Assembly (NCBI GenBank): GCA_049999805.1
Contig: JBNGIO010006316.1
Location: 319,034-383,033 of the forward strand
From: Folioceros fuciformis
Taxonomy: Eukaryota
Length of the DNA stretch: 64,000 bases
Direction: 5' to 3'
Made by a program: the position numbers and the translations under genes. Positions within the stretch are counted from its first letter, which is position 1, and the number at the start of each line of letters is the position of its first letter. Under the pieces are notes generated by a model, which made no database searches, was not told the DNA's origin, and saw only the letters and a program-made list of their open reading frames with translations. Positions 1-58,749 of this stretch are shown here, piece after piece.

Positions 1-520
1 CATGTGAAGATAGAGGGGCAAAGGCGAGCAGGTGAGCGGGCGGAGGGTGCGGCAGTGACCTAGAAGCGCGGTGCCCGGTGCCCGGCGGGACACGTGCTTG
101 GCCCCGCGCGCGTGACGCAGGCTGGCGTTGCTTGGGGGAAACGCGGTGCAGTCTTCCCGCTCTCTCTGCTCTCTCTCTACCTTTGTGTCTGGTGTGGACA
201 GCAGTGTGGGGCCAGGGCAGCGGAGCAATCAGCAGGGTGGGAAGCAACGAATCCCGGGCCGCTCAGACCTCCTCATCCAGGCCCTGGCTCCTCTTTCGTG
301 GCACCTTCCTCGGCCTTCTGCTCCCTTTGCTTGCTTCTAGTCCTTGGGGAGGAGGAGGTCCTTATAGGGATCCTGCCGGCAGCTCATCTCTCTGCCCATG
401 TCCCTTGTCCCTGGTCTCTGTCCCTGTTCCCGCCCCCGCCCCCGTTTCCCGTCTTTGTCTCTGTCCTCAAAGCGTCCAGGAACGCCCTTGCTCTTGGCTG
501 CCACGCTGAGTGCCCGCGCC

Positions 521-3420: not shown

Positions 3421-4122
3421 CTGCAGTCTTCTGCTGCTGCTGCACCCACCAACTTTTTCAGCGCACTGCAAGGCCACTTTTAACTCATGGTCTTCTCCTC
3501 TTTTTTGATCACCGCTCAGCATCGGCCCAGCCATTTGCGTGTAGCATATTCGGAAATTGGTTTCCGTTTCAGCCGTGAGTCGGTGACCAAGCCACTCTGT
3601 GGAAGCTACCTGCGTCTGCGTCGCCTTGACTCGTGCCATTGGTAGCTTCGCCCGCAACATGGCAAGTCACGACACGAAGCGGACCAGACCATGTACTAAC
3701 GACGACGCGGGAGGAGAAGCAAAGAAAAAATGGCTTCCATCACTCCTCAGGCTCCGGACCCGACCCTGGACCCGGACTCCCGGATGTCCCCACCTGCCTG
3801 CCTGCGGGCCGGGAGCTCTTCTCCCGACAACATCTCAACAACTCATACTCTGGCAACTTATGTACCTTGACACAAAGCAACCTAAATTTAGCACTATTTG
3901 TATCAAGGTTCATCTAATTTTTCAATCTCTATGTATGTACTATAATTCATTGCTCCATGCTTTAGCTTCTTTGCCTGGAGCCAAAAGCCTGGATATGGAC
4001 AACATGTGTAAGTATATATCGATATGTAGGTATCTCATAAATTTTTCATATAATTTTTATTTATTTTAATGTAGAAAAATAAAATTAATATATTAAATAT
4101 TTTACATATAATAAGTAATATA

Positions 4123-4222
4123 NNNNNNNNNNNNNNNNNNNNNNNNNNNNNNNNNNNNNNNNNNNNNNNNNNNNNNNNNNNNNNNNNNNNNNNNNNNNNN
4201 NNNNNNNNNNNNNNNNNNNNNN
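4123..4222. other. assembly gap (100 N)
   Basis: N run in AT-rich flanks. Confidence 1.
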
Positions 4223-11199: not shown

Positions 11200-14050
11200 A
11201 ACCTAGCTATTCCCCGGTGATTGTTTGTTCTACAAAATATTTGTTTACAAATGTCTTGTTGATCAAATATAGGCCTTGTTGATAACCTGCTCTAGCTTAG
11301 GGACTTCAATGAAATTTACGAGTCAGAGAAACTATCAGGAAGTTTGCTAAGGACTTATGTTGATGTATTCATCACAAGCAAGCATGAGGCTTGAAGTTCA
11401 GCCTAAAACTGCTATTCTTTTGTTCTCTAAGATGCTTATGAAGTAGCTTCTTAATCTCCAAATTAGCTTTGCCTATTGTGGAATGGAAAAGTTTGGTAAT
11501 GGGTCTACGAAAGTCTAACTTGGTTTCTTTGTCTTCAAAAGAGTTCGAAGGGAGGCTTGTGGAAGGTAGGTTTATGGGCAAACTTGCCCATGGTACGTAG
11601 TAAGCGGCCGGTGAAGGTTTTTATGGTAGGTTAGCATAAGAAGATATCTACGTAGTAGGATGTCTACCTACATACGTACATAGGGAGAGTACCTACATGG
11701 GGAAAAAAAGAAGATATCTACATAGGTAGGGAAGGTACTTATACGGTAGATACCGCACCTATGGCAATGGAGTAGACAGCCTACCTACGACAATGGGTGG
11801 GAATGGCAAGGAACCTACCTACGAAGGGGACATCCTCACCCTCTGTAGGGAAGGAGCCTCAAGTTAAGGAACAAGTGGATCCTTTTCCTACTGAACCTCC
11901 TGTAAGTGGTGGTGAAGGGATACCCCAAGAGATCCAAGAGGTACTGTGGAAGTTCATGGATCCAAGAGAAGACGGATCCCAATAATGGAGGGGGGCCAGT
12001 AACTCAACCTTCAAACTTTGCCTCCCTTCAGGCGCAGTCCTAGCCACACCTTTTTGGAGAGAGGGTCAACGAATCTTCTATGGTAGCGCCAACAGTCCTA
12101 GTCTTTAGCGGCACTCACTACCCTAGCAATTATTGGTAGGACTTAGCCTCTTGGTAGGTGTGTGCAATTAAAGTTGGTGGCGCCTAGTGTGAGAGAAGGG
12201 TAGCCCACCACGTACATGTAGGAGAGGGTTCATGTGTCGATCTCTCCTATAAGGAGGGGCTACACAAAGAAATATGCACTCTTCTCATGGTGAGTTCTCA
12301 TGCTCAATAGAGCGTAGGAATCTCGTTGCCAGCTGTGTGTCATCACAGTGCCTAGTTGTGGCTAGAGTTGCAGTGGTCAAAGTGCTTGGCGGAGGGCTCA
12401 TATTCTTCCATGGGCATCCTTGCAAGTTGCTTCCCTATTGAATGGTTGTTGTGTTGTTGCGAGTGTGTGGTGAGACCTATGTGATTGTTGGCTTGAGGGC
12501 AGACTCCAAGGAAAGACTCCGTGGAAGTTCTCGCTAATAAGCACAAGCACGCAACAACCAGCCCAAGGAAAAACTTGTTGGTCGTTGGATGTAGGGTGGT
12601 CGTTGGACGTAGGGAGACGAGTAGCTAGATTGTTACAAGGAAAAACTTGTTGGTCGTTGGACGTAGGGAGACGAGTAGCTAAATTGTTAGGTTGAGGAAG
12701 GCGTCGTAGGGAGCCTTGTGAGGAAAGGATATTGAGTGTAAGGAGGTAGAAATCAATAGGGGGGAGTACTGGGGNNNNNNNNNNNNNNNNNNNNNNNNNN
12801 NNNNNNNNNNNNNNNNNNNNNNNNNNNNNNNNNNNNNNNNNNNNNNNNNNNNNNNNNNNNNNNNNNNNNNNNNNGTCGTAGGGAGCCTTGTGAGGAAAGG
12901 ATATTGAGTGTAAGGAGGTACAAATCAATAGGGGGGAGTACTGGGGTCCTTCTAAATGGGGGAATGGTGCCCGTTGACTATTGTAGGGGAACGACAAACG
13001 TAGCTGACCAAGCTCGGAGGAGAGCGATTCTGGGGAAGCCTACAACGACCGTGGGATTGATGTGGCCACGATACATGTGAGCGGGTGCTTAGTAAGGGTA
13101 CCATACCCGCTTGCCCACACCCATACTGACTCATACTTGCATAAGGTAAATAAATGTTCCAAAACTTGACATGATTATACGTTGTCTTCTGCATAGCATT
13201 CAAAAGGCAAAGGGCATTCCTAGCCTTCTAAGAAAACATGGTTGTCAAGGCATGCCAAAAAAATATTTTTTTTTGTCAAAGTTAATGGAACACACCCTTC
13301 GCATCCTCTATGTTGCCAGACTTCACACTTGTAAATACTAACACTTTACATAAATAAATACTAAGCTATTAGTAATAGAAAGTTCATGTTGTTGTAGTTT
13401 TTGTGAGTCATGCTCTAAAGCTTAAACCCAAGGTTTGGAAGACCCTTGCACAAACAAATCACACTCAATAATGCGTTGAATTCGTCCAACAATAAGTTGA
13501 TGTCAAGCATCTTTAGCTAGGGATACAAGAAAAACAGCAACCTTTGCACTTGTGGTGACGCCTTTGTCATGGTGACACTTTTGGTGATAGACACTTCTAA
13601 TGACACATGCACTCTTGTGGAGACATTGATAAAGCATATCCCTTACATTTTATGGAAGGCACCCTTTGCAACAAGACTGTAAGAAGAGCTTCACATGTAA
13701 TCTTGGCTATTAGAAGACCTAGAAAGGTGAGACAAATGTTGACATGGAGAACATCCAATATCCTTCCTAACTATGATGGTTCTTGTTTGCTATGTAGTTG
13801 CACCGCTTTCTGGTATGCACATAACCAAGAACACCAATGTGAGAAGGGTGTTGCTTTGGTGTTAGATAGGTTGGGTAGAGGTCTTACCTTCACTCACTAT
13901 AAAAGATAGTCTTCATCTCTTTTGTGTTTGAGCTAAGAGCTTTACCATCTCAATGTTAGTGAATTTTTATAATTTTCTTATCTTTATGATATCCTTTAAC
14001 CTGGTTGTCTCTATGCTTTGTGGGTTGTCTAGTTGACTTGTCTTAATCTT
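11200..14050. mobile_element. decayed retroelement-like / repetitive intergenic block
   Basis: Lower GC, no spliced gene, internal tandem repeats at 12565-12681, and an LTR-like TATA/T-rich segment at ~13890-14050. No intact domain is recognised. Confidence 0.35.
12775..12874. other. assembly gap (100 N) with ~72-bp sequence duplicated on both sides
   Basis: 12703-12774 is nearly identical to 12875-12946. Confidence 0.95.
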
Positions 14051-15143
14051 AGGCTTTCAGGCTCAATTTTGCAAGGGTACGCTTATAAAATCTGTGGCGT
14101 GGAGGGTAAAGGGTGGAGGTTGGAGTGGGTACAGGCATATGAGGTGTGAGGCACGTGGCAAAGGGTTTTAAGGGAAAAGCGGCGCAGGATACATGTACTG
14201 TACCGGGAAGAGCCGGTGGCACGGTGGCCGCGGTGCCGGGGCCCGGGACCCGGAGCCCAGGCCAGGCCAGGCCAGGCCAGAAGGGAGTGCAGTACAAATG
14301 AGTAAAAAGAAAGGGGAAGGGGGGGAAGGCGGTTGCGGCTCATTTATGGGGCGTGTCATGATTGCTGTTTTTGCGTGGGATGGCGTCGTCGCCGTCGCCG
14401 TCGCCGTCGCGTAGCTGCTGTCCTGACGGCGGCCCAGTCCCATTGCCGCTTTTATGACCCGACCCTCTCGTCGCTCGCCTTCTCCCATCCCATCCCTGTA
14501 CACCACCAGTAGTACCCTTCTCTACCTACGCTCATACATACGGGTGGAACTAAAGATAGTAAATCCGCCGTAATCGTACCTACTGTAATGAGGCGTGAAA
14601 TGATCATCTCTTGTCCAGTTGAGCATCGTTACCTCCCCTTTCCTCTATATATATTTGTATATGTATATCCGTAAGTACAGTCTCCTCCTTACGCCCCACA
14701 AGACAACACAACATAACACAGTCTGTCTGTCCCGGACTTCCGCTGCGTTATACGGAATAAAGAGGCAGCCAGGCCAGGTCAGTCCAAGCCAGCCCGGCCC
14801 AGCGCAACCTCTGCCGTCTCCCTTTCTACTCCTCCCCTCTCTCCCTGCTGGGGCCTTGGCTGGGCCCTCTGCTGCTGCTGCTGCTGTTCCTGCTCCTACT
14901 CCTGCTGTTCCTGCTCCTGCTCCTGCTCCTAGGCGCCAAAATCTGCTGCTCTTCCCCTGTTTCCTCTGTTCTGTGTGTCCCAGTTTCTGTTTGTTTGCTT
15001 GTGCTTCGGAGCTCTGGAGGCGAGCCCAGCATAGTGCACCCTCAGACGTCACAGCCCGTCTGCACCCGTATGCTCCTGCGTAGTGGTCTAGCGCTCTACC
15101 CCTCCTCCTCCTCCTCCTCCGCGCTTCCGCCGCGCTGCTCGTG

Positions 15144-18100
15144 ATGCCTAGGCGCCGCAAAACCGGCAGGGTAGGGGAGACGGAGCGGCAGGATGTCCCT
15201 CCTCCTGCTCCCGTCCCCGCTTCCTCTCCTACAGCATTCGACCCGGCGATGGCTGGGGAGGAGGCGCCGCCGCCGCTGCCTCCTCCCTCGCGCTACCAGC
15301 CTCCTCCTCCTCCTGCTCTTGGGAGCGGGGCCGCCGCCAGGCCGATATTCGTGTCTCGTCCCTTCAATGCTGCGGCCGTTCCTTATTCCCCGACGGCAGG
15401 CGACCCTACGCAGGTTCAGCAGCACCTACAGCCGCGCCGCTCGGTGCAGCGGTATGTGCAAATCGGGGCTCAGCCCCCACCTGCTGCCCCTCTCCATTTC
15501 GCGCCGCCGGCGGAGCCGCCCGTGGCCACATTCATGCAGCAGCTTCAATTGCAGCCTGCGGAAGCCGAGGTTGCTGTGGTGCCGCCTCCAGTCTCCACCC
15601 GCGCGCTCAGGTACCCCAGGCGGCCCGGGAAGGGAGTCCTCGGCCGCAGATGTATCGTCAAGGCTAATCACTTCTTTGCCAACCTGCCCGACAAGGACTT
15701 GCATCAGTATGACGTATGCTTCTGTGCCATACTGTGCTCCAGGCTCCCATGGTCTTTTTTTTTTTTTGGTTTCTCGCCAATTCTCGTGCTCATTGTTGAT
15801 GTGGACGTTTCGCAGGTAGCAATCGTACCGGAGGTTGCGTCCCGCGGCGTCAACAGAGCGGTCATCCGGGAGCTCATCAGCGTGTACAATGCTGACATGG
15901 GAACCAGGCTGCCAGTCTATGATGGGAGGAAGAGTCTCTACACAGCTGGCCCTCTCCCTTTTCAGCACAAAGAATTCGAAGTTAGATTAGTGGACGATGC
16001 CGAGTCTGGCAGCATGGGCAAAGCGTGAGTGAGATTTCAGCTGCTGGCTCTAGTTTTTTTCGTCTTCTTGCTTCTGTTGCTTGCTTCGTTTTTCGTTTTA
16101 GGCATTCTACGGCTTGGCAGGCCCCGGGAGAGGCCGTTTAAGATCACCATCAAGTTTGCAGCTCGGGCGGATCTCCACCATCTTGGAGAGTTCTTGAAGG
16201 GCAAGCAAGCGGACGCCCCGCAGGAAGCGTTGCAGGTTTTGGACATTGTGTTGCGGGAGCTTCCTACCACCAGGTGCTTTGCCTTTTCTTTCCCCGTTTT
16301 CTCCCTAGCCTTTTATTTTATGCTCAAGTAGGTGAGTGTTATCCAGCAAGTACGTTCACACGCGACGGAGATCCTACTTCTCTGCGGCCACTGTTGTCTG
16401 ATTATTACTTATTAGTACATTCATCTCACTGTCACTCTCTCTCCTTCTCGACCGAAGTAATCGGCTAATGTTGATGGTCCGCCTCAAGGACATTGACTGA
16501 CATATTCTTCTCAGGTACACACCGGTTGGACGATCTTTCTACTCGCCTAACCTCGGTCGCCGGAGTCTAGGAGAAGGGCTTGAAGCATGGCGAGGATTTT
16601 ACCAGAGTATTCGGCCAACCCAAATGGGACTGTCCCTCAACATTGGTACAGAAAGCCAACTCCAAAAAGTCCTGCAATGGCGATGAGTTTTGCATGGGCT
16701 AAGATTGCAATCCAAGCGGGCACTCAACAAACCACGCCGTGCTTAGAGCAGTTTTCCTTTTCGCAGATATGTCTGCCACGGCATTTCTCGAGTCCCAGCC
16801 GGTCGTTCAGTTTGTTGAGAAGCTTTTGGGGAGGCCGCTTCTTAATCGACCTTTATCTGATGTGGAGCGTGTCAAGGTAAGGCGTAATTTTCCTTGCACA
16901 CTTCAGTTCCAAAGGAGGAGCAACACTAACTCCGCAAAATGCAACTCCACCAGATCAGAAAAGCTTTACGAGGGATCAAGGTTGAGGTGACACACAGGGG
17001 CACAATGAGGCGCAAATATCGGGTTTCGGGCTTGACGATTCAAACAACCGCTGATTTGAGGTCCTCATGCCGTTGCCACATATGGTGTGATGAAGAGTAT
17101 TGATAGTAATGGGTAACTGAGTCAATCGTATTGTCTTGTCCTGTAGGTTCCCTGTGGATCAAGACCAAAATATGATGTCTGTGGCAGACTATTTTTGGCG
17201 TACGTACGAGTACAGACTCGAGAGGCTGAACCTTCCCTGTCTCCAGGTTGGCAATCAACAACGGCCGAATTACCTACCCATGGAGGTGAGCTTTTGTTCG
17301 CATCTGGTGGCAAGACGGAAGTGATCCTTAGCCGAACCACTTCTAACGCCATTATTCCCCTGCCTACAGGTTTGTAAAATCGTGGAGGGGCAGCGCTTTC
17401 CGAAACGTCTGAATGAAAAACAGATTACTGCTCTTCTCAGTATTACATGTCAGAAGCCTTGTGATCGTGAGAGCGACATCCGGAGAGTATGCCCTTTGAG
17501 CAGCGCTTTTCATTGCTGCTTGCGTTTTCAAAAAATTCAGTGCTGTATGTCCATTCCACACCTAACGCTAGTGAGTGTTCCCACTTCCCCCAGACCGTTC
17601 AACAGAACGACTACGATCGTGACAGGTTTGCTCAGGAGTTCGGTATTAAAATCAGTAGGGACTTGGCTACTGTCGAGGCACGTATATTGCCGGCCCCATG
17701 GGTTAGTATCGTCGAGCACCACAATTTTTTCTCCAACGCAATTGTCATTCACTCTGACAACATTTTCGGTGTGTAGCTGACTTACAACGATTCTGGAAAG
17801 GAGAAAGAGTGTCAACCCGCAGTTGGACAGTGGAATATGTTGAACAAAGTCTGTAATCTTGTTGCCAGCTGTTTTTTCATTTTTAGAATCCTTTTCTTGG
17901 TGTATGTGGTTTATTCATTGGCCTTGCGGTTTTGCTCAGAAAATGGTGAATGGCGGCAAAGTTGCACACTGGGCGTGTGTTAATTTTTCACGGAACATTT
18001 CTACTTGTGTAGCATCTGACTTCTGCAAAAGGCTGGCTGATATGTGTGAAATATCCGGCATGGTACATATCCCTGAGCTCTTGCTGGTCACAGTTGCTGA

Positions 18101-22520: not shown

Positions 22521-25032
22521 TCAATCCTCACATACACGGAGGTCTGGAGACTGCGGGAGAGCCACATAACCTATGGCCTCCAACTCTGCAGACACTCTCT
22601 CAAGTTTGGTGTAAACCTCTTTAACTTCTGGGTGCGAAAGATCATCTGCATGAAATGAGTGTACCAGGTTGTGCACCTCGATCCAGCTGCGACCAGGCTC
22701 CTTCCGCAACCCTGCTTCCTTCATCAGCTTTCTCACTCGTCCTACTTCATCCAGCCTCCCAGCTCCTGCGTAGAGATTTGATAACAACACATACACAGCA
22801 GGGTTCCGTGGCTGTAACTCGAGAGCACGTTGTGCCGCATAATTTCCTAAAAGTATATTGCCTCGAGTAGTACAGGCACCAAGCAAGCCCCTCCATATGA
22901 CATCGTTTGGTCGAAACGGCATCTGATTGATGAAATCCAACGCTTCTTCAAGGTGCCCTGCACGACCAAGTAGGTCCACCATGCAGGCATAATGCTCCAT
23001 CTGAGGAATAAGTTCATGGTCTTTTATCAATAAGTCGAAGTATGCACGGCCTAAATCCACAAGACCACCATGGCTGCATGCAGATAGTACAGACACAAAT
23101 GTTACTTGATCTGGCTTCATTCCTTCCAGCTGCATCTGCTTGAAGAGAGAAAGGGCAACCTTCGCCCTGCCGTGCTGTGCATACCCTAAAATCATTGCAT
23201 TCCATGACACCAGGCCCCGTGCTGGCATTGCATCAAACACCTGTCGTGCATGATCAATGCTCCCGCATTTTGCATATGTGTCCAGCAGAGTCGTCATCAC
23301 TGTTACATTGTTCTCGAAACCCTTCGAGAGCACTGCCTCATGGATTCCTTTCACCTCTTCAAGAGCCCAGAGCTCAGTGCAAGCTCGAAGGATTCCGATA
23401 AAAGTCACTTCACTCTCCGTTACACCTGTGTGCTGCATTTCTTTGTAAAGATGCAAAACCTTTTGGGCATGCCCTAGCCGACCATACCCCATGATCAAAG
23501 AATTCCATGATACCACATCTTTTTCACGAGCAGAGGTGAACACCAGTTCTGCATCCTCCACGCTACCACATTTCACGTACATGTCAATCAGTGCATTGCT
23601 CACAAAAAGATCTGACCCATTTTCCGCCCGACCTATACGTGTATGAACCCTCTTGCCCTCTTCCAATGCTGCTAAACTTGCACATGCTTGAATAGCTGCC
23701 ATCACAGCGACCTTCTCTGGAGTGACACCTTCTTGTTCCATCGCATTAAACAATTCTAGGGCCTGCTGCCCAAGTCCATGCTGTGCATATCCTGCAATCA
23801 TCACAGACCAAGAAACGAGGTCCTTCTTGTGAAGCTTGTCAAACACTTGACGAGCCGAGACAATACAGCCACACTTGGCATACATGTCAATTAGAGCATT
23901 GCTCACAAAGTCGCCTGCCTCCACACCAGCTTCGACAGCTAGAGAATGTATCCACTTCCCATCCTCAAGATCTGTTTGTTCGACACAAGAAGAAATAGCA
24001 TTGAGGAAAGTCACCCGATTGGGTCTCACTCCATCCTCAAGCATTCTTCGGAACAGCATCCGGGCTTCCTTGTAAAGTCCCTGCGAAGCATAAGCTCCAA
24101 TCAGACAGCTCCAGACTACCACGTCTCGTATCTGCATTTGCTCAAAAACTTCTAGAGCATCCCGTATATTCCCACATTTTGCATACATGTTCACAAGATT
24201 GTTTCCAACGAAGTTATCTAGCTGTAAATCCCTTTGTCTAATCTGGTCATGGATCCTTCTGCCCTCTGCCAAAGCCTTGTTGCTGGCACACACACAGAGA
24301 ATGTGAGAAAAAGTACATCTATCAGGAACGACCTGGTCCTGCTGCATCCTGTCAAACAGTCGGAAAGCCTCCTCGCCATTCCCAGCCTGTTCATATCCAT
24401 GTATCAATGCATTCCACGTGACAACATCTCTCGTAACCATCCCGTCAAACAACCTCCGAGCCTCATCTACTTTTCCACATTTCACGTAAAGAGTGATGAG
24501 GTGATTGCCTAATTCAGCATTCAGCTCGACTCCGTGTGTCCTGATGCGAGCATGAACTCTCCGGCCCTCTTTCAAAGCTCTCACTTTGATGCACCATCTC
24601 AGAAAAGAGCCACAAATCTGTCGATATGTGTCCTGACTCTTGGATTTCATGCACTCTAGACATGCCAAAGCCTCCTCAAATCTTCCATCTTGACAAAGTG
24701 AGCTCACATCCTTCGAATGCAAGGAAGGGTCACCATCATTCTGAGGCCTGCAATGATCACGTACTACCCGTTCACAAACTTCAACACAATGTATGCGACC
24801 ATCAGGATACTAATCTCGATTTCCCACAGCACCATAGGTAAATGCATGCAATTGCTCTCGCAATTGCGACTGTAAGAAAACGGTACCCGTCTTCCGCCAG
24901 GGATACAGACCCGTTATTTCTAAGGCCGTTTGCTTTGACCACAGCCAGAACAACACCCCGACTTTCTCCCCGTCCAGACCTCATCGAACCTAGACTGGAA
25001 CACGTTGAAATTGGACACGCGTTTCTCAGCAT
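22521..25032 (-). CDS. PLS-class PPR protein, E1-E2-E+ (PG box), truncated DYW; organellar RNA editing factor-like
   Basis: Exon 1 at 25032-24887 (transit-peptide-like) splices in frame to 24747-22521. PLS repeats (LIDMYAKCG, DVVSWN), E domain HYACMVDLLGRAG and PG box KEPGRSWIEV...SHP...GYV. Confidence 0.92.
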
Positions 25033-40911: not shown

Positions 40912-41380
40912 TTTCTACCAGATTCTAAGTCCGCGGCAAATTTGCAAGCCTGAAGGGCAGCTTCAAAGGAGACGATCCTGCCCCTTCACGGCTTGTACTC
41001 TGTTGTTTTTGTGTACATGGTTTCTACGTCTTTTTTATAACAAAGTCAACAGTTCTTCCATTGTACGCCTCTTTCCTAGCGAGCATAGCATGCACCGCAT
41101 ATGATGTCATGCCGTGTCATGCGTGGACAGGACACTTGTTGCATCGCATATACACGCTGGCCACTAACTCGATTCATAGGAGTCATCGGCAGGCGAGTAA
41201 AGAAGGAAGAGGATGCATCTCCTAGAGCTGGAAGCGGATATTGTGGCGACAAATTGCTCTGGACCCCGGAATCCGGTGGAATCACAGGCGGTACGGAAAA
41301 GGAAGGCTCTGTCTGCCTGACTTCCGACTAGGGGAACCTCAGCACGTCCTCGCCGAACAGGGTTTTGTTTGGATGTGGAG

Positions 41381-44146
41381 ATGGATGACCCCCCCGGGTC
41401 TGCAGGATGCGTAAGGATAACATCTGGCACCGTGAGCAGGCTATGTCGTGAAGGAAATCTCATTGAGGCTGTGGAGGCTCTGGGAGTTCTGGTGCAGACA
41501 GAGTGTTGCATTTCCAAGCCCGTGTTTTACTCTGTGCTGAAGAAATGTGCATTGGAGAAGGACCTGATTCTGGGCCGCCGCGTCCATGCTCTCATGGTGA
41601 GAAATGGATACCAGTCTGACAACTTCTTGTGCAACCACGTTCTGAGGATGTATGCTTCCTCTGATAGGCTGGAAGACGCGATGGATGTGTTTGAAGGCTC
41701 TCCTGAACCAGATGCCTTCATGTGGTCTTCCATAATTTCTGCGCATGTTAAACGGGGGATGGACAAGCAGGCCTTGCAGCTGTATCATCAGATGCGCAGG
41801 TCAACTGTGACGCCGGATGGCCACGTGTTTGTGGCAGCCCTTCAAGCTTGTGGAAGGGGATCAGATTTGGCGGCTGGGCAGCAGGTACATGCAGATGTGT
41901 TGGCAACTGGAGTTGAACCTGATTTATTTGTCTGGAATTGTTTGGTGGATATGTACGCAAGATGTGGCAGCTTGGAAGACGCTCGAAGATTGTTCGACGG
42001 AATTGGTCAGAAAGATGTGGTGACGTGGAATGCCATGTTCGCAGGGTATTCCCAGCAGGGCATGGGACAGGAAGCCCTTCTCCTTTTCAGTGCTATGGAA
42101 GAAGAAGGCATCTCTGTACCTACTGCCGTAACATATGTTTGCCTCCTCCAAGCGTGCGCAATTGTCGGCACCTCAGCTTTGGAGACGGGGAAGGGGATTC
42201 ATAGACAGATTCGAGAACGAGGACATGAAGGGGATGAGTTTCTTGGAAACAGTTTGGTGAACATGTATGCTAAGTGCGGAAGCTTAGAGGAAGCTCAGAG
42301 AGTGTTTGACAGGCTTGCTAAGAAAGATGTAGTGACATGGACCGCCATGATAGCAGGGTATTCCCAGCAGGATATGGGCCAGGATGCCCTTTGTCTTTAC
42401 AATGGTATGCAAAAGGAGGGCATCGCTGTACCCAATCCCGTGACATTTGTGTGCCTCTTGCAGGCGTGTGCAAGTGTGGGTGCTCAAGCCTTGGACATGG
42501 GGAGGCAACTTCATGCGAAGATTAGAGAGCGAGGTCATGAAGATGATGTGTTTGTTGCCAACAGTTTGGTGAACATGTATGCAAAGTCTGGCAACTTGGA
42601 AGAAGCTCGCAGAGTATTCGACGGCATATGTCAGAAAGATGTTGTGACGTGGAATGCCATGATAGCTGGATATTCCCAGCAGGGCCTTGGCCTCAAAGCC
42701 CTCTCTCTTTACGGTGCTATGCAAGACGAAGGGATCATTGTGCCCGATTCTGTGACATTTGTGCGCCTCTTACAGGCATGTGCAATTGTGGGTACCACAG
42801 CTTTGGAAAATGGTGAACAACTTCATGCACAAATTAGGGCACAAGGACTTGAAGTTAATACATTTGTAGCGAGCAGTTTGGTCCACATGTATGCAAACTG
42901 TGGCAGCTTGGACCAAGCCCATAGAGTGTTTGACGGACTATGTCAAAAAGATGTGGCGACGTGGAATGCCATGATATCAGGGTATTCCCAGCAAGGTATG
43001 GGCCAGGAAGCCCTTCGTCTTTACTGTGCCATGCAAGAAGAAGACATTGTAGAGCCTGACAACGTGACATTCGTGAGTCTCCTGCAGGCATGCGGAAACC
43101 TGGCAGCTTTGCATCTAGGAAGGCAGCTACATGCAGAGATCAAAGGAAAGGGGCTTGAAGCTGATGTGTTTGTAGCTGGCAGTCTGATAAACATGTATGG
43201 TAAATCCGGGAGCGTGGGTGATGCACAGCAGGTATTTGATGCGCTGAAGGAAAGAGATGTTTTTGCATGGAGTGCACTTATTGCAGGTTACACCAGCAAA
43301 GGAGACAGTGAAGTGGTCTTCAATCTATTCCGGAGAATGAAGGACGATGGAGTCCACCCAGTCGGCATCACCTTTCTCAGCATACTAACAGCATGCAGTC
43401 ATGCTGGGCTGGTGAAGGAGGGGAGAGAGTATTTTGAGAGTATGAGCAGACACTACAGCGTCGCTCCTACGGTGGAGCATTACACATGTATGGTGGATCT
43501 CCTCGGTCGTGCAGGCCGCGTGGATGAGGCTCTAGGTTGGATAAGGACAATGCCTATACCTCCTAATGTTTCAGTTTGGCACGCTCTGTTAGGTGCTTGC
43601 CGAAAGTGGAGCAACGTTGAAGTTGGGCGGCATGCTTTTGACCAAGCAATTAAGCTAGACAAGACAGGAGCGGCAGCATATGTGTTGATGACAAATATTT
43701 ACACAGCCGCGCAGATGTGGGAGCAGGCACAGGAGATCCAGGCCAGGAAAAAGGAAATTAGGGCATGGAAGCAGCCGGGGCAGAGTTGGTGGACAGGCGT
43801 GGAAGGACTAGTTCATAGCTTTATGGTTGGAGTTAAGAAGCTTCCTAAGAGTGAAGCAAGGGAGATGGAAGTGGTTTCCAAATTGAAGAGAAGCCAACGT
43901 GTCTCACATTCGTATATATCATCGCCGGCTCACGTACCTGATTGGAGGAAAGGCGGTGTATTTGGGGATAGCAGCGGAAAATTCTCTGTGCATAATAAAA
44001 TGCATACACCGGAGGCTTCTTACATGATTTTTGTGAAATTTCTAAGGCTTTCCTTCAATTGTCTAAGAGGAACCAAGTTTGTATTCGCAGTGCAAAAGAC
44101 TTCGCGACTTTCGTTGCTAACATTGGCTGTGCTTGCCGCTATCTAG
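41381..44146 (+). CDS. PLS-class PPR protein, E1-E2, WW-type box, degenerate DYW domain
   Basis: Intronless ORF of ~920 aa with highly similar tandem PLS triplets, HYTCMVDLLGRAG and WKQPGQSWWTG. The start may lie further upstream. Confidence 0.93.
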   Translation: MDDPPGSAGCVRITSGTVSRLCREGNLIEAVEALGVLVQTECCISKPVFYSVLKKCALEKDLILGRRVHALMVRNGYQSDNFLCNHVLRMYASSDRLEDAMDVFEGSPEPDAFMWSSIISAHVKRGMDKQALQLYHQMRRSTVTPDGHVFVAALQACGRGSDLAAGQQVHADVLATGVEPDLFVWNCLVDMYARCGSLEDARRLFDGIGQKDVVTWNAMFAGYSQQGMGQEALLLFSAMEEEGISVPTAVTYVCLLQACAIVGTSALETGKGIHRQIRERGHEGDEFLGNSLVNMYAKCGSLEEAQRVFDRLAKKDVVTWTAMIAGYSQQDMGQDALCLYNGMQKEGIAVPNPVTFVCLLQACASVGAQALDMGRQLHAKIRERGHEDDVFVANSLVNMYAKSGNLEEARRVFDGICQKDVVTWNAMIAGYSQQGLGLKALSLYGAMQDEGIIVPDSVTFVRLLQACAIVGTTALENGEQLHAQIRAQGLEVNTFVASSLVHMYANCGSLDQAHRVFDGLCQKDVATWNAMISGYSQQGMGQEALRLYCAMQEEDIVEPDNVTFVSLLQACGNLAALHLGRQLHAEIKGKGLEADVFVAGSLINMYGKSGSVGDAQQVFDALKERDVFAWSALIAGYTSKGDSEVVFNLFRRMKDDGVHPVGITFLSILTACSHAGLVKEGREYFESMSRHYSVAPTVEHYTCMVDLLGRAGRVDEALGWIRTMPIPPNVSVWHALLGACRKWSNVEVGRHAFDQAIKLDKTGAAAYVLMTNIYTAAQMWEQAQEIQARKKEIRAWKQPGQSWWTGVEGLVHSFMVGVKKLPKSEAREMEVVSKLKRSQRVSHSYISSPAHVPDWRKGGVFGDSSGKFSVHNKMHTPEASYMIFVKFLRLSFNCLRGTKFVFAVQKTSRLSLLTLAVLAAI

Positions 44147-51319: not shown

Positions 51320-51730
51320 TCAGACACCACGCATTGTCCCGACTATGTAAGGGGCCACAATCCTTTTTTCAACTTGTAATCTTGGCTTAGTCAAAATCTT
51401 ATCATCCATCATCCTTTTCCATACACTACTTTCCTTCAATATTGTTGCATCATGTACTCCTCTAGGATGTATGCAACACACATCTAGAAAGAGTTTGTTT
51501 GCATCACAAAGACCTTGCAACACAAAAGAATGCATGTCATGCTGACACCAATATGCAGCTGGGTTATCTTTCTTATTAGGTTGTTGGACTAACTTGATAT
51601 GAGATCTATCAATACACCTCACCATGTTAGGGAGTCCTGTAAGAGTTTGAAACTTGGCTGAAATAACTTGTTGCCTATGTTGGGAAGGCCATGTGATAAA
51701 ATGTAAGAATAATTTTTGTGGATTATTCAG
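51320..51730 (-). mobile_element. PIF/Harbinger transposase (DDE_Tnp_4/HARBI1-like) fragment
   Basis: ITWPS...GLPNMVRCIDRSHI...HSFVLQGLCD..LFLDV...PRGVHDATILKES...PYIVG. Truncated, and the IDG motif is altered. Confidence 0.85.
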
Positions 51731-52419
51731 TAATGTATAAAGTGTAGTGTACCATTGTAGCTGCACCAACTCCATACATATCAGCAATAATATGTGGGGA
51801 TAAACCACCAGCAAGGCTGTGAAACACCATTGCCACAGCACGACCTAGTTGTAAAGGTTCCCGTAAAGAAGACAGGACACCAAAATAGAAAGAGGGAAGG
51901 AAAACTCTATTGACTAAAATGTGTGTGAGAAGGTGACATTATATAGATACCGGCCGTATTATAAAAAGATAATTACCATTAAATCCATATTACCAATACC
52001 GGGCGTGGACGGGACGGGCGTCCTGGGTTTGGTGCCTGACCATTAAATGTAGGCCTGCGCATGTGAAACTGCGGGACACTGCGCCGTGACAGCCTAACAG
52101 CAATCCATCACCGCGCTATCGCAATTTTTCTTTGTTTAGCCTTCGTAATGGTAACTATAACCGCTCTGTTCATTTTGTCCCCTACGTTGTGAACGGTGTT
52201 TGAGCCACAGTTCCCTACAGTTTTCCTAACTTAAAAAAATCCAGTTTCCTACAGTTTTCCTACCTCAGAAAAGTCCAGTTTCCTACGTTTTCGTAACTTG
52301 GAAAAGTCCAAACTGAACTGCGCAATCTCGGCCATGTGTCGTTCCGATGTGAGAGGCCCTTGATGTGAAGGGTGTCTCACAGGTACTGTGTATGAAGTGA
52401 CAGCCGACGGTTGTTTGGC

Positions 52420-52475: not shown

Positions 52476-55400
52476 ATGCGGACTCGCAGCCGAGGAGGTG
52501 ACCCCCAGCTCGATCCGATTCCTCCCCCCACGCCCAAACGTACGCGCACGGGTAGCAAGCAGCATCAGCAGGAGGAAGAGCAGCAGCCGCAGCAGCAAGA
52601 GCATCAGCTTTTGCAGCAGCAGCAGCAGCTGAAGCAACTGCGTCAGGAGAAGCAGCAGGAGCTAAAGCAGCAGCAGCAGCAGCAAGACCAGGAACAAATG
52701 CGGGATCAAGAGCAGCAAATGGCGGAGGAGCAACAGCAGGCTGTTGCGGATCCGGCGGCCGTCAGCTGGAGTGTGGAGTTCTTGCGGCGCAGGCTTTGTG
52801 CTCTCCCGGACACCGAGGATGCAGACGCGAAACACCTCCATCTGCTTGCCACTGATTTCGCTCCCGACACCTGTAGGCAACTTACCGACCTCTTAACCGA
52901 TACAATTCTCTACCGTCACAACAACTCCGCACTGCTCCTAGGCCCGCGAGGGTGTGGTAAATCCTTTGTGGTGGAGCATGTCTTGCGAGACCTCCGGAGG
53001 GGCCATATCGACCGCTTCTCAGTTGTAAGCTCGGCTCTTCGCTTTCGCCCCTCATGGCAGCTGCTTTTTTGGCTCCGGCTGGCGCCCAGGATCTCGCCTC
53101 GGCACTCATTGGCCTATTTGCTGTTCGCTGTGCGCAGGTCCGTCTCAATGGCCTTCTTCATCACGATGACCGTTGCGCATTCAAGGTCCTCCTTTTATGT
53201 CCTACGCATGTGCTTTTTGGAGATTCCCAGCACTCCACATCTTCGAAACTGATTGAAGCTGTGGGATATGCAGGAGATAGCCAAGCAGCTTTGCATGGAA
53301 CACCACTTGTCCTTCTCCAACTCGGTATTCACATCGTCGAATTTTCACCTGTGTTTGTGTGTTAGGAGTGTGTCTGCAAGTGCACCAGTTCTCTGCTAGC
53401 GATGGGTTACTGGGGTTGATGCACGCCGTCGTTGTTTGTATGCACTGGTTGCACATCTTGGTCCGCAGACTGAGCTCTACCTGGTGCTCGCTGTCTGTTT
53501 GTGCAGGCCTCGGTTGACGAAAACCGTATTTTCCTATCAGCAAGTCTCAGGCAAGGACCTTCTGTTGAGGCACTTGAGCAGAGAACTTTGTCATCCGGTG
53601 TTGCCTGTGCCGAAAAGAGATATGTTTTACCATTGCCACCCTTGCTCTCGCAGGGACTCTGCTCTTGAACAGAAAGCGGTTGTCTTCATCCTCGATGAGT
53701 TTGACCTCTTTGCGCAGGTAATTGTGACTGTAATTTGGCACGGAGAATTATCTGAGGATATACCAAACAGCTTAGCAAGTTTTCAGGCTTGCTTGCGTTA
53801 CTCTCATGCTGCTCACATTGCGAAGGTGCTATCTGACCATCTCTGTGTCCAATGTGCATCTGGTCACAGAGGTCTCAGCAATTCCTACTCTACAATGTGC
53901 TTGATGCCATGCAGTCCCCAGAATGTCAAGCTGCGATTGTCGGCCTCAGCTCCCGCTTTGTGCGTTGTGTTCCAGCCCACCATGTTTCTGTTGTTTATAA
54001 ATGATTGAAGCTCATGCCTGTTGACTTCGAACTGTATGACCAGTGACTTTGAAGGAGCCTCTTTGCAGGATGCAGATCTGCTCTTAGAGAAACGAGTGCG
54101 ATCTAGGTTTTCCCATCGCAAGTTGCTTTTATTTCCCCCGACGTTTGAAGCCTCCTTAGGGTGAGGATATGAGAATTTATGAATGTGATTTGCTACCCCG
54201 ACGTGGGGTAGTCTTCAATCATGCCGCTTAAGGTCCGTGCACCTGCACAGTCAAGGCCATCAGCTGACCCTTATCTCCCATGCTGTGATCTATTAGGCAC
54301 CTTCTTAAGTCCTTGCTGCTTCCAGTTGGGGTGGATTTTCCTCACAAGGAGTTCAGTGCCATCTTCAACCTGAATTCTGCAGTATCCTCCAATTGAGCTA
54401 GCGAGTATGAGTTGTTTACTTGTCCCGAGCGGAAGAAAGCGCTCGCGTTTGAATGCGAGCTGTCTGTTGTGAGCATGCCCTAGAAGCGTCTTTGACTTTC
54501 TTAGAGAGTACTTGAAGACAAGGGTGTGAAGCGGGCTTTACGTCGCTTCTTTGAGATGGATCTGAGTTATCAGCAAATTTTTGATCTCGCGTAAGTGATG
54601 TTTTGGTCTGCTTTTTCGGGTTTGGTTAACTATTCACTGAAACCCTCCCTTTCATTTTTTATCTGATTAGTCTGTAGCTGCACTGATGGGATTTGAGTGA
54701 AGACGTGGCGTTCAACAGATTTCGGATTGTTTCCAACATGGACCGGAATGTGGGCCTTATATCAGCCAAAGATGTTGTTGCAGCATGCTCGACTCTCAGA
54801 TGCAAGCCTAAAATGAGCTGTTTAATGGGTAAATTTTCTTGATGTGGTTATAAGAGTTCCTTTTGTGCCTGCCTGTTTACATTTCACAGTGATCCTGAAA
54901 CTGGCCGTCATCTGGGCAGGATTGTCTGTGCTGGAGCTCTACCTCCTTGTTTCTATGAAGAGGCTGGAGAGAAAAGAGCGTGAAACCTACAACTTTGAGG
55001 CAGTCTTCATTGGTATGCAAATTTTGCAGCAGACAGTGGCTTTGTCAAATGAGGAAAATCACGTTGGTTTCTGGCCCCCTTGTTTACCGTGGAAGCTGCA
55101 ATTAACCTATGCACGTGGGTTGCGGGGATGCACTTTGCTATGCAGAGTACGAGCAGCTTCGTGCGGTGCACAATACGTGTGATGTTTATTCTCGACAGTT
55201 TGCCCTAAGAGTATGTACTGATTGTTGACTGCGGATGTGCGATGCTGGCGAAGTCACCTTCTCATAATTAATTTTCTGTGCAGGCATTTGAGCATCTACT
55301 GGAGCGAGAGCTCATTGCTTTTAGTGACTCCAGAGGAAGCACCGCCAAGGAGTTTAGGGCTGTGAAGCTCATCATCTGCACACAGGAGCTTGATGAGTGC

Positions 55401-55642: not shown

Positions 55643-56600
55643 ACAGAGGCTCAAACGTGTCGAGGCTCGGCCTTGGAGAAGGGTCTCTTCCCACTAGCCC
55701 AAAACACCTGCAACAGCAGTTCTCCTTGTCTTGCAGATTCCTGGAAGGTCGCTGTGAACACACGGCCCTCTAGTGCAAGCGTAGGGGTTGTATGCTGGAC
55801 CCCATCCAACACCGTTTGTTCAGAACTTGGCAGAACAAGGTGAGGTAGGCATGACGGTAACCACACATCACCTTTCCTCCTAGTGACATTCTCGGTTATG
55901 TCCAACCTCTCTGTGCATAATAGACACCGCAACCATATGCTCGACTAGTTTTGGTTGCTGGTCTTTTTCGAAGGGGAAAAGTTTGCAGTAGTCTATGGGA
56001 AGGTTTCTGCTGACAGCGTCCTGTGGTGGCAAAGCTTGCCCCTGGAGGAGGCGCTGGGAGAACTACCTTCAAGCGAAGGCTTGTGAGTTGGGCATCACAA
56101 AGCTGGCGTGGAGGCATTGTTCTGTCTGAGGACGTCCAGCTTCAGGCAAAGTGCGGCTCTGGCTTAACGAATCTTAGAACTTTAATGACTTCGGTGATTC
56201 ACGTAGATGTTAATGTATCATCAGCGGCCGTAAATATATCGTTTAGGCTGAGATGTTCTACGTCCTGAAGGAGCTCGGATTGGATATGCTCTGCCGAAAC
56301 AGAATTCGGCCGGTTCAGTTTTGTCAACCGAAGGTGGCGGACTGGCATTTGCGTGCGCATCACGGTTGAAGAGCACAAGTTGGCACGAGGACCTTACATC
56401 ACAAGATTGTCCGACAGAACTGGAGCCCACGGATAGTGGCGTTGGACACATGTCACAAGTGGGAAGAACTGATGAGACTAGGCTGAAGATTGCAGGCAGC
56501 GCTTCAGATTGGAGGCTTCTCTTCAAACAATTGCAACAAATCGTCGGCGACCTCCGACTTGTGGATTCCAGATCAGCCAGCTGCGCATTACCCGATATGG

Positions 56601-56692
56601 CGTGCAGAAGTTGTTTAGCCAGAGGACCTCCAACTCGCAGAGCTGTAGCAAAGTTGTTAAGTTGGAGGTCCTCTAGTTGAACAATTGCTACG
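56601..56692 (+). ncRNA. putative pre-miRNA hairpin 1
   Basis: agttgtttagccagaggacctccaact pairs with agttggaggtcctctagttgaacaatt over 27 bp (3 G:U, 1 mismatch). Confidence 0.65.
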
Positions 56693-56736
56693 CGTCAGAA
56701 TTGAAACCAATCTGCACGGATCACCCAAGCTGCCGT

Positions 56737-56835
56737 GCAGCAGTTGTTTGGCCAAAGGACTTCCAACCCGCAGGCTTTAGGTCTCCGGGACAGCAGACCT
56801 CAAGGTTAGAGGTCCTGTGGTTAAACAATTGCTAC
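56737..56835 (+). ncRNA. putative pre-miRNA hairpin 2
   Basis: gcagttgtttggccaaaggacttccaacc pairs with ggttagaggtcctgtggttaaacaattgc over 29 bp (4 G:U, 2 mismatches). Confidence 0.65.
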
Positions 56836-56940
56836 AGGCCACAAGCAAACTGCTGCTGGATAGGCACCGAACTCGTCTGCACATCCAGATGAAGCTGGCA
56901 GCGCCGCGTTACCCAATTTGGCTCGGACAAATTTGTGGCA

Positions 56941-57043
56941 TGTAGAAGTTGTTGAGCCAGAGGACCTCCGACCTGGAGGCGATCGAGGTCTCTGGCATAG
57001 CGGAACGCGAGGTTGGAGGTCCTCTGGTTAAACAATTGCTACA
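56941..57043 (+). ncRNA. putative pre-miRNA hairpin 3
   Basis: tgtagaagttgttgagccagaggacctccgacct pairs with aggttggaggtcctctggttaaacaattgctaca over 34 bp (3 G:U, 2 mismatches). Confidence 0.68.
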
Positions 57044-57701
57044 AGACATAAGCTACCTGCCAAAGAATGCTGACTTCGGATACATCTGCATCTCCAAGCA
57101 TCCGTCTTCGGTCACCAATGCATACTTCCCCGAACTTCCAGAGAACCTCCAACGACTGAGACAACGGGAGCCCATTTATTCCGTCCGCGAATAACTTTGA
57201 GGGCAAGCCCTAAATACCATAAAAAGACACTACCCAAATTTGGGTATTACCGTCTTTCGTCACCACAAGAAAAGACCCGTAACTGACTTCTAAGTTCTGC
57301 CATGAGCCTTCTGCGAAGATGCAGGAAGCACGACGCGACAAAATCAGCAACAGGGAAGACACTGTTGGAAGGCAGTGGCACGGTGACGACGCTACTGAGG
57401 CGTGAGGCACTGCATGTTGCAGCTGCGGCGATGGCGGCAAGCAGCAAGTAGAGCTGAAGATCCGAGAGCTGCTGATGTAGTTGCAATTCTTCTTGCAAAA
57501 CTATTCCCATAACAGTTGTTGTTTCTGCGAAGCCGCAGCCGCCCCGCAGGTGGCAGCCGGTTATCAGCGGAACACGGCGGAGAGCCGTGATGCCTTCACG
57601 AAAGCTGGTGACCCGACCAAGTCTCACGCCATCGGCACCAAGTGTAAAGCCGGAAACTGTACGGTCACCGGCCAGCTCCCGCCCTCGAAACGGTCCTGTC
57701 A

Positions 57702-57727
57702 GGCGGGAGATTTCGAATTTTGGCGCC
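57702..57727. promoter_or_regulatory. paired E2F sites upstream of TIPIN
   Basis: GGCGGGAGA (reverse complement TCTCCCGCC) and TTTTGGCGCC, 70-90 bp upstream of the ATG. Confidence 0.65.
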
Positions 57728-57794
57728 AAGTAAATACTGGCTTTAGGGCTGATGGAGACGAGGGGAGGAAGTTTATGCCCTTCGGCAGAAGCTG

Positions 57795-58749
57795 ATGCCT
57801 CAAGCTGGCACGATGCAGAGCAGGCAAAAACACCAAGAGGCAAAGCCAACAGGGTGCTTCAAGTGTGGCAAGCCCGGGCATTGGTCCAAGGATTGTCCAT
57901 CTGCCTCATCTCCCGCATCAGGGTCTGCCGTCCGCCCTGCCGCGTCTTCTCAGCCCGACAAGGGTAAATTCGCTTCCTCCAATTCCACAGGACCAGTGGC
58001 AGCGGTGCCGCGCAAGCGACCAAATTTGACGCCCGATCTGCTTCTCTCCGAGGATGGACTGGGGTACGTGCTCCAGCACTTCCCGCGGCTGGTTCACGTC
58101 CGAGGTCGCGGACATGAGGCAAGTAGCGCCCTCCTCTCCTCCTGGAATCCCGCTGGTAAGTAGGCTTCATCCGCACCAAGAATCTGACCTGGATCGACAC
58201 CTGCAGGTGGACGATTTGGAAAAGCTCTTAGAGGCTTACATGTGTTGGCATTCCCGCTTGCTGCCGTACTTTTCCTTCGATCAATTCGTGGACAAGGTCG
58301 AGAAGCTTGGAGCCACAAGACGAGTCCGGGTATGTATCACAGTGTTGCCTCCAAGTGAAGCGTGAGTTGCATCGGTGTGCCTCTCATGCAAGATGACATC
58401 AGCTGTGCATTCGGGAGCTCCGGGAGAAGGTGGAAAGGGGAGACAAAACAGGATCGCAAATGCAGAGAGACCAGGCAGCCACAGACCCGGATTCCGAAGG
58501 TTGGTGCTTTCCGGCAGCCACAGTCCATCCTGTGCCGTCAATTAGGGATCCGTTTCCAATCACTTAGCTCGGACTTCGGATTCATCTCCAGGTGCGGAGG
58601 CGGGGAATTTGTTTTCAGGTTTGGCCGTCCCCCTCCTCAACTCTTGCGAGCAGGACGATGATGACCAAGGCGAAGCGGAGGAAAGTTATCCTGACAACGC
58701 GGTGGATGATGCGGTGTACGAGGAGTTGTACCAGCAGGCAATCACATGA
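57795..58749 (+). CDS. TIPIN: replication fork protection protein Swi3/Csm3/TIPIN with an N-terminal CCHC zinc knuckle
   Basis: CFKCGKPGHWSKDC, RPNLTPDLLLSEDGL, GRGHE|VDDLEKLLEAYMCWHSRLLPYFSFDQFVDKVEKLG and an acidic tail. Four exons. Confidence 0.88.

Follow-up and report, generated by a model that had tools for sequence, protein, structure and literature searches.

We describe an array of three paralogous hairpins on the forward (+) strand of a 64,000-nucleotide stretch of Folioceros fuciformis DNA, referred to throughout as the window. The array is plausibly a polycistronic MIRNA or proto-MIRNA cluster of recent, gene-derived origin that is read from the + strand, a reading to which we give about an even chance. 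The greater share of that chance goes to a canonical, precisely diced miRNA, which taken by itself is somewhat less probable than even. Newly reported here are contigs of the array type in two other organisms, a coding-like sequence family that carries the core of the hairpin arms, and two decayed arm relics upstream of the array.

Genomic setting of the array

The array lies between an ORC4-like gene upstream and a TIPIN-like gene downstream, both on the + strand, about 1.4 kb past the ORC4_C exon and about 0.75 kb ahead of the TIPIN-like open reading frame. This placement had been proposed in the initial annotation and was borne out by domain matches to ORC4_C (33.3 bits against a cut-off of 25.3) and Swi3/TIPIN (56.6 bits against a cut-off of 25). 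A Pfam search returned no match for either of the two open reading frames that cross the array. The features of the locus are as follows.

54826-55182, + strand: ORC4_C domain; the ORC4-like gene ends upstream of the array
56567-56597, + strand: 5' flank of hairpin 1, which shares homology with a related family of sequences as well as with the flanks of hairpins 2 and 3
56598-56697, + strand: hairpin 1, from the repeat search, the folds and a 38-column pair table
56731-56844, + strand: hairpin 2, from the folds and the 38-column pair table
56932-57052, + strand: hairpin 3, from the repeat search, the folds and the 38-column pair table
57753-58365, + strand: start of the TIPIN-like gene, zinc knuckle and Swi3 domain (Pfam match)
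58030-58365, + strand: Swi3/TIPIN domain

A motif scan of 55901-57800 found no TATA[AT]A on the + strand and, as a poly(A) candidate, a single AATAAC at 57190; both results are uninformative.

The window is intron-containing plant DNA with about one gene every 5 kb and a GC content near 0.5. Its GC content, dense genes and intronless PLS-class pentatricopeptide-repeat (PLS-PPR) open reading frames fit the published hornwort genome description, which, in the portion drawn on here, gives a GC content near 0.5, high gene density and abundant PLS-PPR genes (PMC7027989). Such a density of PLS-PPR open reading frames may point to extensive organellar RNA editing in the lineage. A protein-atlas comparison of one PPR open reading frame placed it no more narrowly than Streptophyta. 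The window also holds a WI12 gene, with its best named relatives in the liverwort Riccia (60%) and the moss Sphagnum (59%), and a family-1 glycosyl hydrolase gene. GC content is 0.59-0.61 at 1-4000 and 14001-16000 versus about 0.48 elsewhere, and the open reading frames in these two stretches are rich in Ala, Gly and Pro. Other features of the window are listed below.

4123-4222 and 12775-12874: assembly gaps, two runs of exactly 100 N each
15084-16028, + strand: Argonaute N-terminal domain exon (ArgoN, 69.3 bits, cut-off 30.9) of an AGO gene some 40 kb away from the candidate array
22521-24809, - strand, and 41321-44146, + strand: two long intronless PLS-class pentatricopeptide-repeat open reading frames with E (and E+) motifs
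51320-51844, - strand: fragment of a DDE_Tnp_4 (PIF/Harbinger-type) transposase open reading frame (25.4 bits against 24.8), about 5 kb upstream of the array

Structure and stability of the three hairpins

The three stems were aligned in register without gaps, giving 38 homologous columns. An inverted-repeat search delimited the arms of hairpin 1 at 56598-56635 and 56660-56697 (38 nt each, 24 nt between) and those of hairpin 3 at 56933-56974 and 57010-57051 (42 nt each, 35 nt between). The own arms of hairpin 2 are missing from that listing, and its pairing was seen in the folds. The homologous stem corresponds to 56731-56768 and 56804-56841 in hairpin 2 and to 56936-56973 and 57011-57048 in hairpin 3, where the base is lengthened by 4-5 more pairs. 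Over the 38 columns the stems are composed as follows.

Hairpin 1: 30 Watson-Crick pairs, 5 G:U, 2 A:C, 1 other mismatch
Hairpin 2: 29 Watson-Crick pairs, 4 G:U, 2 A:C, 3 other mismatches
Hairpin 3: 31 Watson-Crick pairs, 3 G:U, 0 A:C, 4 other mismatches

With G:U included, 35, 33 and 34 of the 38 columns are paired in hairpins 1, 2 and 3, and the stems contain mismatches only and no bulges. The initial annotation had placed three related hairpins at 56601-56692, 56737-56835 and 56941-57043, with stems of 27-34 bp. The hairpins are indeed present, with boundaries slightly wider than those, while the stem lengths gave way to the 38 columns of the pair table.

The 5' arms make up one family of direct repeats (86-89% to hairpin 1) and the 3' arms a second (80-85%); arms differ by 11-24% between copies (29-34 of 38 positions identical). 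The loops measure 24 nt in hairpin 1 (56636-56659) and about 35 nt each in hairpins 2 and 3. It had been claimed that loops and spacers are unrelated. This describes the hairpin 1 loop, which aligns poorly with the other two (12-13 of 24 positions identical, 11-13 gap columns), but not the loops of hairpins 2 and 3 (24 of 35 identical) nor the 5' flanks of hairpins 1 and 3 (17 of 23 identical). Additionally, the alignment places a conserved block ahead of every 5' arm, so the duplicated unit exceeds the hairpin.

As + strand RNA, hairpins 1, 2 and 3 fold at -57.4, -56.3 and -64.7 kcal/mol, with z-scores of -8.9, -5.5 and -8.8; for each of them, none of 200 shuffles was as stable. The - strand gave -44.2, -54.2 and -46.5 kcal/mol. 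All three hairpins are thus more stable as + strand RNA, the outcome of a both-strand folding check that the initial annotation had proposed, with an advantage of 13.2, 2.1 and 18.2 kcal/mol that is smallest for hairpin 2. Folded as 100, 114 and 121 nt, the hairpins reach -54.2 kcal/mol (MFEI 1.11), -54.2 kcal/mol (MFEI 0.89) and -64.5 kcal/mol (MFEI 1.02), respectively. In the global minimum-free-energy fold of a 521-nt stretch, the arms of hairpin 2 pair with those of hairpin 3 and the local hairpins are not formed.

Criteria for annotating plant MIRNAs, as set out in the part of the source used here, are a foldback of at most 300 nt in which no secondary stem or internal loop larger than 5 nt interrupts the duplex, a miRNA/miRNA* duplex with at most 5 mismatched positions of which at most 3 are asymmetrically bulged, and, among further points, sequenced miRNA and miRNA*, a precision of at least 75% and two independent libraries (10.1101/213314). 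The foldbacks of the array are 100, 114 and 121 nt long and free of bulges. In a guessed register, at columns 13-33 or 17-37, the duplex has 1-2 mismatches other than G:U and no bulges in each hairpin. The geometry stays within the structural limits of this list and is what one expects of a plant pre-miRNA array.

Conservation of pairing and the decay of array units

The competing explanation that survives best is neutral debris: the array would be an inverted and tandemly duplicated gene fragment, seen in its youngest, undecayed copies, that gives rise to no functional small RNAs. We regard this as rather unlikely. Pairing was maintained while the paralogs diverged: arms that stand 11-24% apart between copies still pair at 33-35 of 38 columns in each copy, which counts against debris. 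Of the 114 cells in the pair table, 89.5% are paired, and sliding the partner by 1-3 columns lowers this to 30-45%. Also against debris, pairing in columns 5-37 was preserved, gained or restored by 8 of the 12 substitution events and lost through 4 (p=0.018, a post hoc tally that assumes 0.33 of neutral changes to be harmless), and it is the + strand that folds better in each of the three hairpins. Selection for the + strand fold is suggested.

Two of the pairing statistics speak for debris instead. The initial annotation had counted 10 G:U pairs against 2 A:C mismatches; the direction of this asymmetry stands, but the count over 38 columns in three hairpins is 12 against 4 cells and is not significant (p=0.077). 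These cells are not independent since the three hairpins are paralogous and all have two G:U pairs in common, and scoring independent events gives 8 against 3 (p=0.23, not significant). Covariation above the shuffle level was not found across the three stems, with a single compensatory pair and a score that was equalled by 140 of 500 shuffles. Additionally, the locus was picked for its intact hairpins, so the tests of pairing are biased.

Searches for further copies of the arms located the following three segments next to the array.

56104-56141, + strand: decayed 5'-arm relic, 28 of 38 positions identical to the hairpin 1 5' arm (73%)
56509-56539, + strand: decayed 3'-arm relic, nearest to the hairpin 3 3' arm
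57138-57153, + strand: partial copy of the 5'-arm core, 15 of 16 positions identical, without a partner arm (fold z-score +0.4)

The 5'-arm relic has a local alignment score of 36 versus a shuffle maximum of 28, with a fold z-score of -0.5; for the 3'-arm relic the score is 39 versus 26, with fold z-scores of +0.6 and -0.1. A fourth hairpin near either relic was ruled out on these z-scores (-0.5 to +0.6). Because the two neighbouring relics no longer fold, units of the array do decay, and debris gains from the fact that both relics and the 16-nt partial copy adjoin the array.

Beyond these segments the arms are confined to the array. With up to 3 mismatches, a 25-mer arm motif has 4 matches and a 31-mer 3 matches in the 64 kb, all at the array locus, where 100 shuffles predict 0, and a blastn-short search with the arms across the 64 kb found the partial copy at 57138-57153 as the sole extra one. 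In a metagenome scan, a degenerate 24-nt pattern of the 3' arm had 0 matches. A gapped core-palindrome pattern matched 15 loci, which were rejected as relatives of the array, their flanks being unrelated in 15 of 15.

Array-type contigs in other sequencing runs

A search of public sequencing runs listed nine, all of unrecorded type and each sharing fewer than half of the query's sequence words. Contigs of four of them (X1, X2, X4 and X9), which carry no strand or level, were compared with the window. No X9 contig aligned. Run X1 evidently derives from the same organism as the window, as 4 of its 6 aligned contigs are identical to it. One of these identical contigs, 189 nt long, covers 56824-57012, from the 3' arm of hairpin 2 to the 5' arm and loop of hairpin 3. 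On the question of a single transcript, this contig bridges hairpins 2 and 3 in a run that is not recorded as RNA, and no contig spans the entire array. Identical X1 cover is absent at 56467-56823, arm cores excepted, and at 57013-57339.

Runs X2 and X4 represent two further organisms, B and C, respectively. A 356-nt contig of organism C aligns with the window over 56567-56784, a stretch comprising hairpin 1, the spacer and the start of hairpin 2, and differs from it at 28 positions and by 1 gap. An extra 3'-arm-like piece lies 43 nt upstream in this contig, and a contig of organism B has the same order, with 43 nt separating a 3' arm from the flank and 5' arm that come after it. In both organisms the contig matches begin at 56567. 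Changes in the organism C contig were counted over 56597-56754, the part of the 356-nt contig for which differences were listed.

Hairpin 1 5' arm: 1 of 38 positions changed
Hairpin 1 loop: 8 of 24 positions changed
Hairpin 1 3' arm: 5 of 38 positions changed
Spacer: 4 of 33 positions changed
Hairpin 2 5' arm, covered part: 3 of 24 positions changed

The hairpin 1 loop is more changed than the arms (8 of 24 versus 9 of 100, Fisher p=0.005), a pre-miRNA-like contrast of conserved arms and changed loop that is seen in hairpin 1 only. A second X4 contig, resembling hairpin 2, shows 5 differences from the window over 56759-56859 and lacks 5 nt of the 3' arm at 56812, a deletion that would bulge the duplex; its listed part has no substitution in loop or arm. 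This deletion favors neutral debris, as does the organism C spacer, which at 4 of 33 is as conserved as the arms at 9 of 100, while the occurrence of array-type contigs in two other organisms counts against it. These contigs show hairpin arrays of this kind in two further organisms, for which they are newly reported here.

A candidate founder family related to the arms

X1 supplies two further contigs, and X2 and X4 several, that match the arm core only, over 33-41 nt with 2-5 differences, and diverge from the window outside the core. Hand translation of these contigs in the 3'-arm orientation gives one frame that stays open from the 30-nt flanks through the core, and the 3' arm of hairpin 2 in the window translates to EVLWLNNCY in it. 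Third codon positions account for 12 of the 22 sites that vary in the flanks (p=0.033), and the amino-acid changes among the contigs are largely conservative by hand reading, a reading made from 30-letter contig ends rather than whole contigs, whose orientation is arbitrary. Two protein searches with the frame through the hairpin 2 3' arm gave no match at E<=10: one returned a single candidate above that value, the other none.

Because other contigs carry only the arm core, and in an open frame, the arms look like an inverted duplication. The 3' and 5' arms look like sense and antisense copies, respectively, of a multi-copy and probably coding fragment. By eye, and with neither Pfam nor database support, the founder motif appears leucine-rich-repeat-like. 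In hairpin 1, the homology to this family extends past the arm into the 5' flank (56567-56635, about 70 nt).

Since the 5' arm is antisense to the family, only products of the 5' arm could pair with its transcripts, and the 5' arm may be the source of the guide. The candidate guide regions are listed below, each with an uncertain register.

56611-56635, + strand: candidate 5p small-RNA region of hairpin 1
56744-56768, + strand: equivalent 5p region of hairpin 2
56949-56973, + strand: equivalent 5p region of hairpin 3

In hairpin 1, the 5p register starting at 56611, which the initial annotation had guessed, and another starting at 56615 both begin with U. The best target site inside the window had a penalty of 4.0, which is chance level.

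Proposed origin and processing of the array

Transcription, dicing, register, guide strand, targeting and the coding nature of the founder are all inferred in the scheme that follows. A short stretch taken from a multi-copy, coding-like sequence would have undergone inverted duplication and then tandem duplication, leaving three intact inverted repeats in tandem and at least two decayed ones. The array would be transcribed on the + strand, the same as the ORC4-like and TIPIN-like genes, and each unit would form a pre-miRNA-like hairpin of about 100-120 nt, in which a lower stem of some 13-17 bp leads to a duplex of about 21 bp that is closed by a loop of 24-35 nt. A DCL1-type enzyme would cut each hairpin from base to loop. 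The resulting 5p strands, starting with U and antisense to the founder family, would then direct AGO-mediated cleavage or repression of it.

A different outcome of such an origin, which we consider quite unlikely, is a hairpin-siRNA or proto-MIR locus in which imprecise dicing by several DCLs yields mixed 21-24-nt siRNAs. Homology to the founder that extends beyond the arms is the mark of young inverted-duplication loci, and stems of at least 38 bp leave room for more than one register. Young proto-MIR loci of Arabidopsis are described, in the portion of the article cited, as processed by DCL1-4 according to stem length, with products of several sizes (PMC2582634). The reach of the homology beyond the arm in hairpin 1, to about 70 nt with the arm included, is typical of such loci, and therefore products of the array may be siRNA-like. 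In contrast to the hundreds of base pairs in proto-MIR arms, the stems span only 38 columns; their mismatches are already miRNA-like, and the geometry suits a single base-to-loop cut, which favors the pre-miRNA-like processing outlined above.

We give very little weight to the idea that the hairpins are a cis element in a neighboring mRNA, acting on stability, translation or termination from the ORC4 3' UTR or the TIPIN 5' leader. The array does share the strand of both neighbors, and it sits about 1.4 kb past ORC4_C and about 0.75 kb ahead of the TIPIN-like open reading frame, but nothing links the hairpins to either coding region. To our knowledge, three paralogous 38-bp hairpins made from the sequence of another gene are not a known UTR device.

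The slightest chance of all goes to a MITE or other transposon-derived palindrome, with three insertions or amplifications behind the three hairpins. In favor of it are the small size of the elements (about 100 nt) and their long terminal inverted repeats, a perfect direct repeat of 5 nt at the stem boundaries of hairpin 2 (56726-56730 and 56842-56846), a DDE_Tnp_4 fragment 5 kb upstream and the occurrence of arm-core contigs in other contexts. Against it, those contigs hold one arm in an open frame with third-position variation rather than a whole hairpin, and the 64 kb contain no other copy. The initial annotation had suggested a check for target-site duplications, and this found a flanking repeat of at least 4 nt at one of the three hairpins (hairpin 2) and none at hairpins 1 and 3, short of what marks a MITE. 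The hairpin 2 repeat may have arisen by chance, its left copy being inside the founder-family homology. Moreover, the copies are tandem with shared flanks, which points to local duplication and not to separate insertions.

Returning to the MIRNA or proto-MIRNA cluster, its fullest form would be a lineage-specific polycistronic miRNA family in at least three related hornwort-like species, with a leucine-rich-repeat-like founder, birth and death of hairpins, and 5p strands that restrain the founder family. This full form is possible and, on balance, doubtful. If it is true, a single locus from an early-diverging lineage of land plants lets one read the founder, the target and successive stages of MIRNA birth. 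Confirmation would bring together a likely founder with intact and decayed hairpins in a lineage whose miRNA genes are barely described, and would make inverted-duplication birth and polycistronic birth and death testable by comparing the three array-carrying organisms. Lineage-specific miRNAs, polycistronic clusters in bryophytes and young gene-derived MIRNAs are already established, and a confirmed array would leave the general picture unchanged. Predicted hairpins of this sort that have not been validated frequently fall short on expression.

Comparison with known systems

An Rfam search of the locus gave no family at threshold and 4 matches with E<=1, in agreement with the initial annotation, which had recognized no family; the best match was to MIR473, at 26.1 bits versus 52. 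Membership in MIR473/MIR477 (RF00778) was rejected, with matches of 26.1, 24.3 and 23.5 bits on both strands against a gathering threshold of 52. This is the only microRNA family among the Rfam matches, three of which overlap, and it has a purine-rich stem block in common with the array. It differs in that the array matches delete 5-8 model positions in the mature region. Separately, a sub-threshold SECIS_3 match at 56008-56066 on the + strand (22.7 bits versus 63) is most likely due to chance.

The arm-core motifs, in U and T form, were found in no paper of the literature searched, and PMC8075897 makes no mention of miRNA, small RNA or siRNA. The hornwort small-RNA catalogue reports, in the portion drawn on here, 180 'novel' miRNAs whose sequences are given in the supplements and DRYAD only (PMC7027989). 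Since these 180 may include this locus, the unrecognized family cannot be called a new one.

Polycistronic MIRNA loci are nothing unusual in bryophytes: in the relevant part of the cited account, P. patens has about 25% of its miRNAs in such loci, and a single one, MIR390 with MIR11676, is given for M. polymorpha (PMC9291395). Similar to those loci as described there, the array packs several pre-miRNA-like hairpins of one strand into a few hundred bases. In contrast, the hairpins here are three paralogs known from DNA sequence, whereas the Marchantia pair belongs to two unrelated families.

MITEs are also described, in the passage cited, as a source of plant MIRNAs (PMC9641971), and the array shares with such loci a short element that is nearly all long inverted repeat. 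It differs from them in having a repeat resembling a target-site duplication at one of three hairpins, copies that are tandem rather than dispersed, and single-arm relatives in a coding-like frame.

With regard to targeting, miR482/2118 regulates NB-LRR genes, a large repeat-containing gene family, according to the part of the source used (PMC4651229). Should the founder be a multi-copy gene family, the array would resemble miR482/2118 as presented there in directing one small RNA at a conserved coding motif of many paralogs. Here the leucine-rich-repeat look of the founder motif was judged by eye, and the likeness is one of targeting scheme.

Lastly, the array can be set against the model of Allen et al. 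2004, in which, as outlined in the portion of the article cited, inverted duplication of a target gene gives rise to young MIRNAs (PMC2582634). The likeness to this model, as outlined, consists of arms that are sense and antisense to another family, with homology that reaches beyond the putative miRNA. The differences are that the founder was not recovered as a protein in searches of protein collections, and that here the arms are already short (38 columns), with the unit tandemly triplicated and found in at least three organisms.
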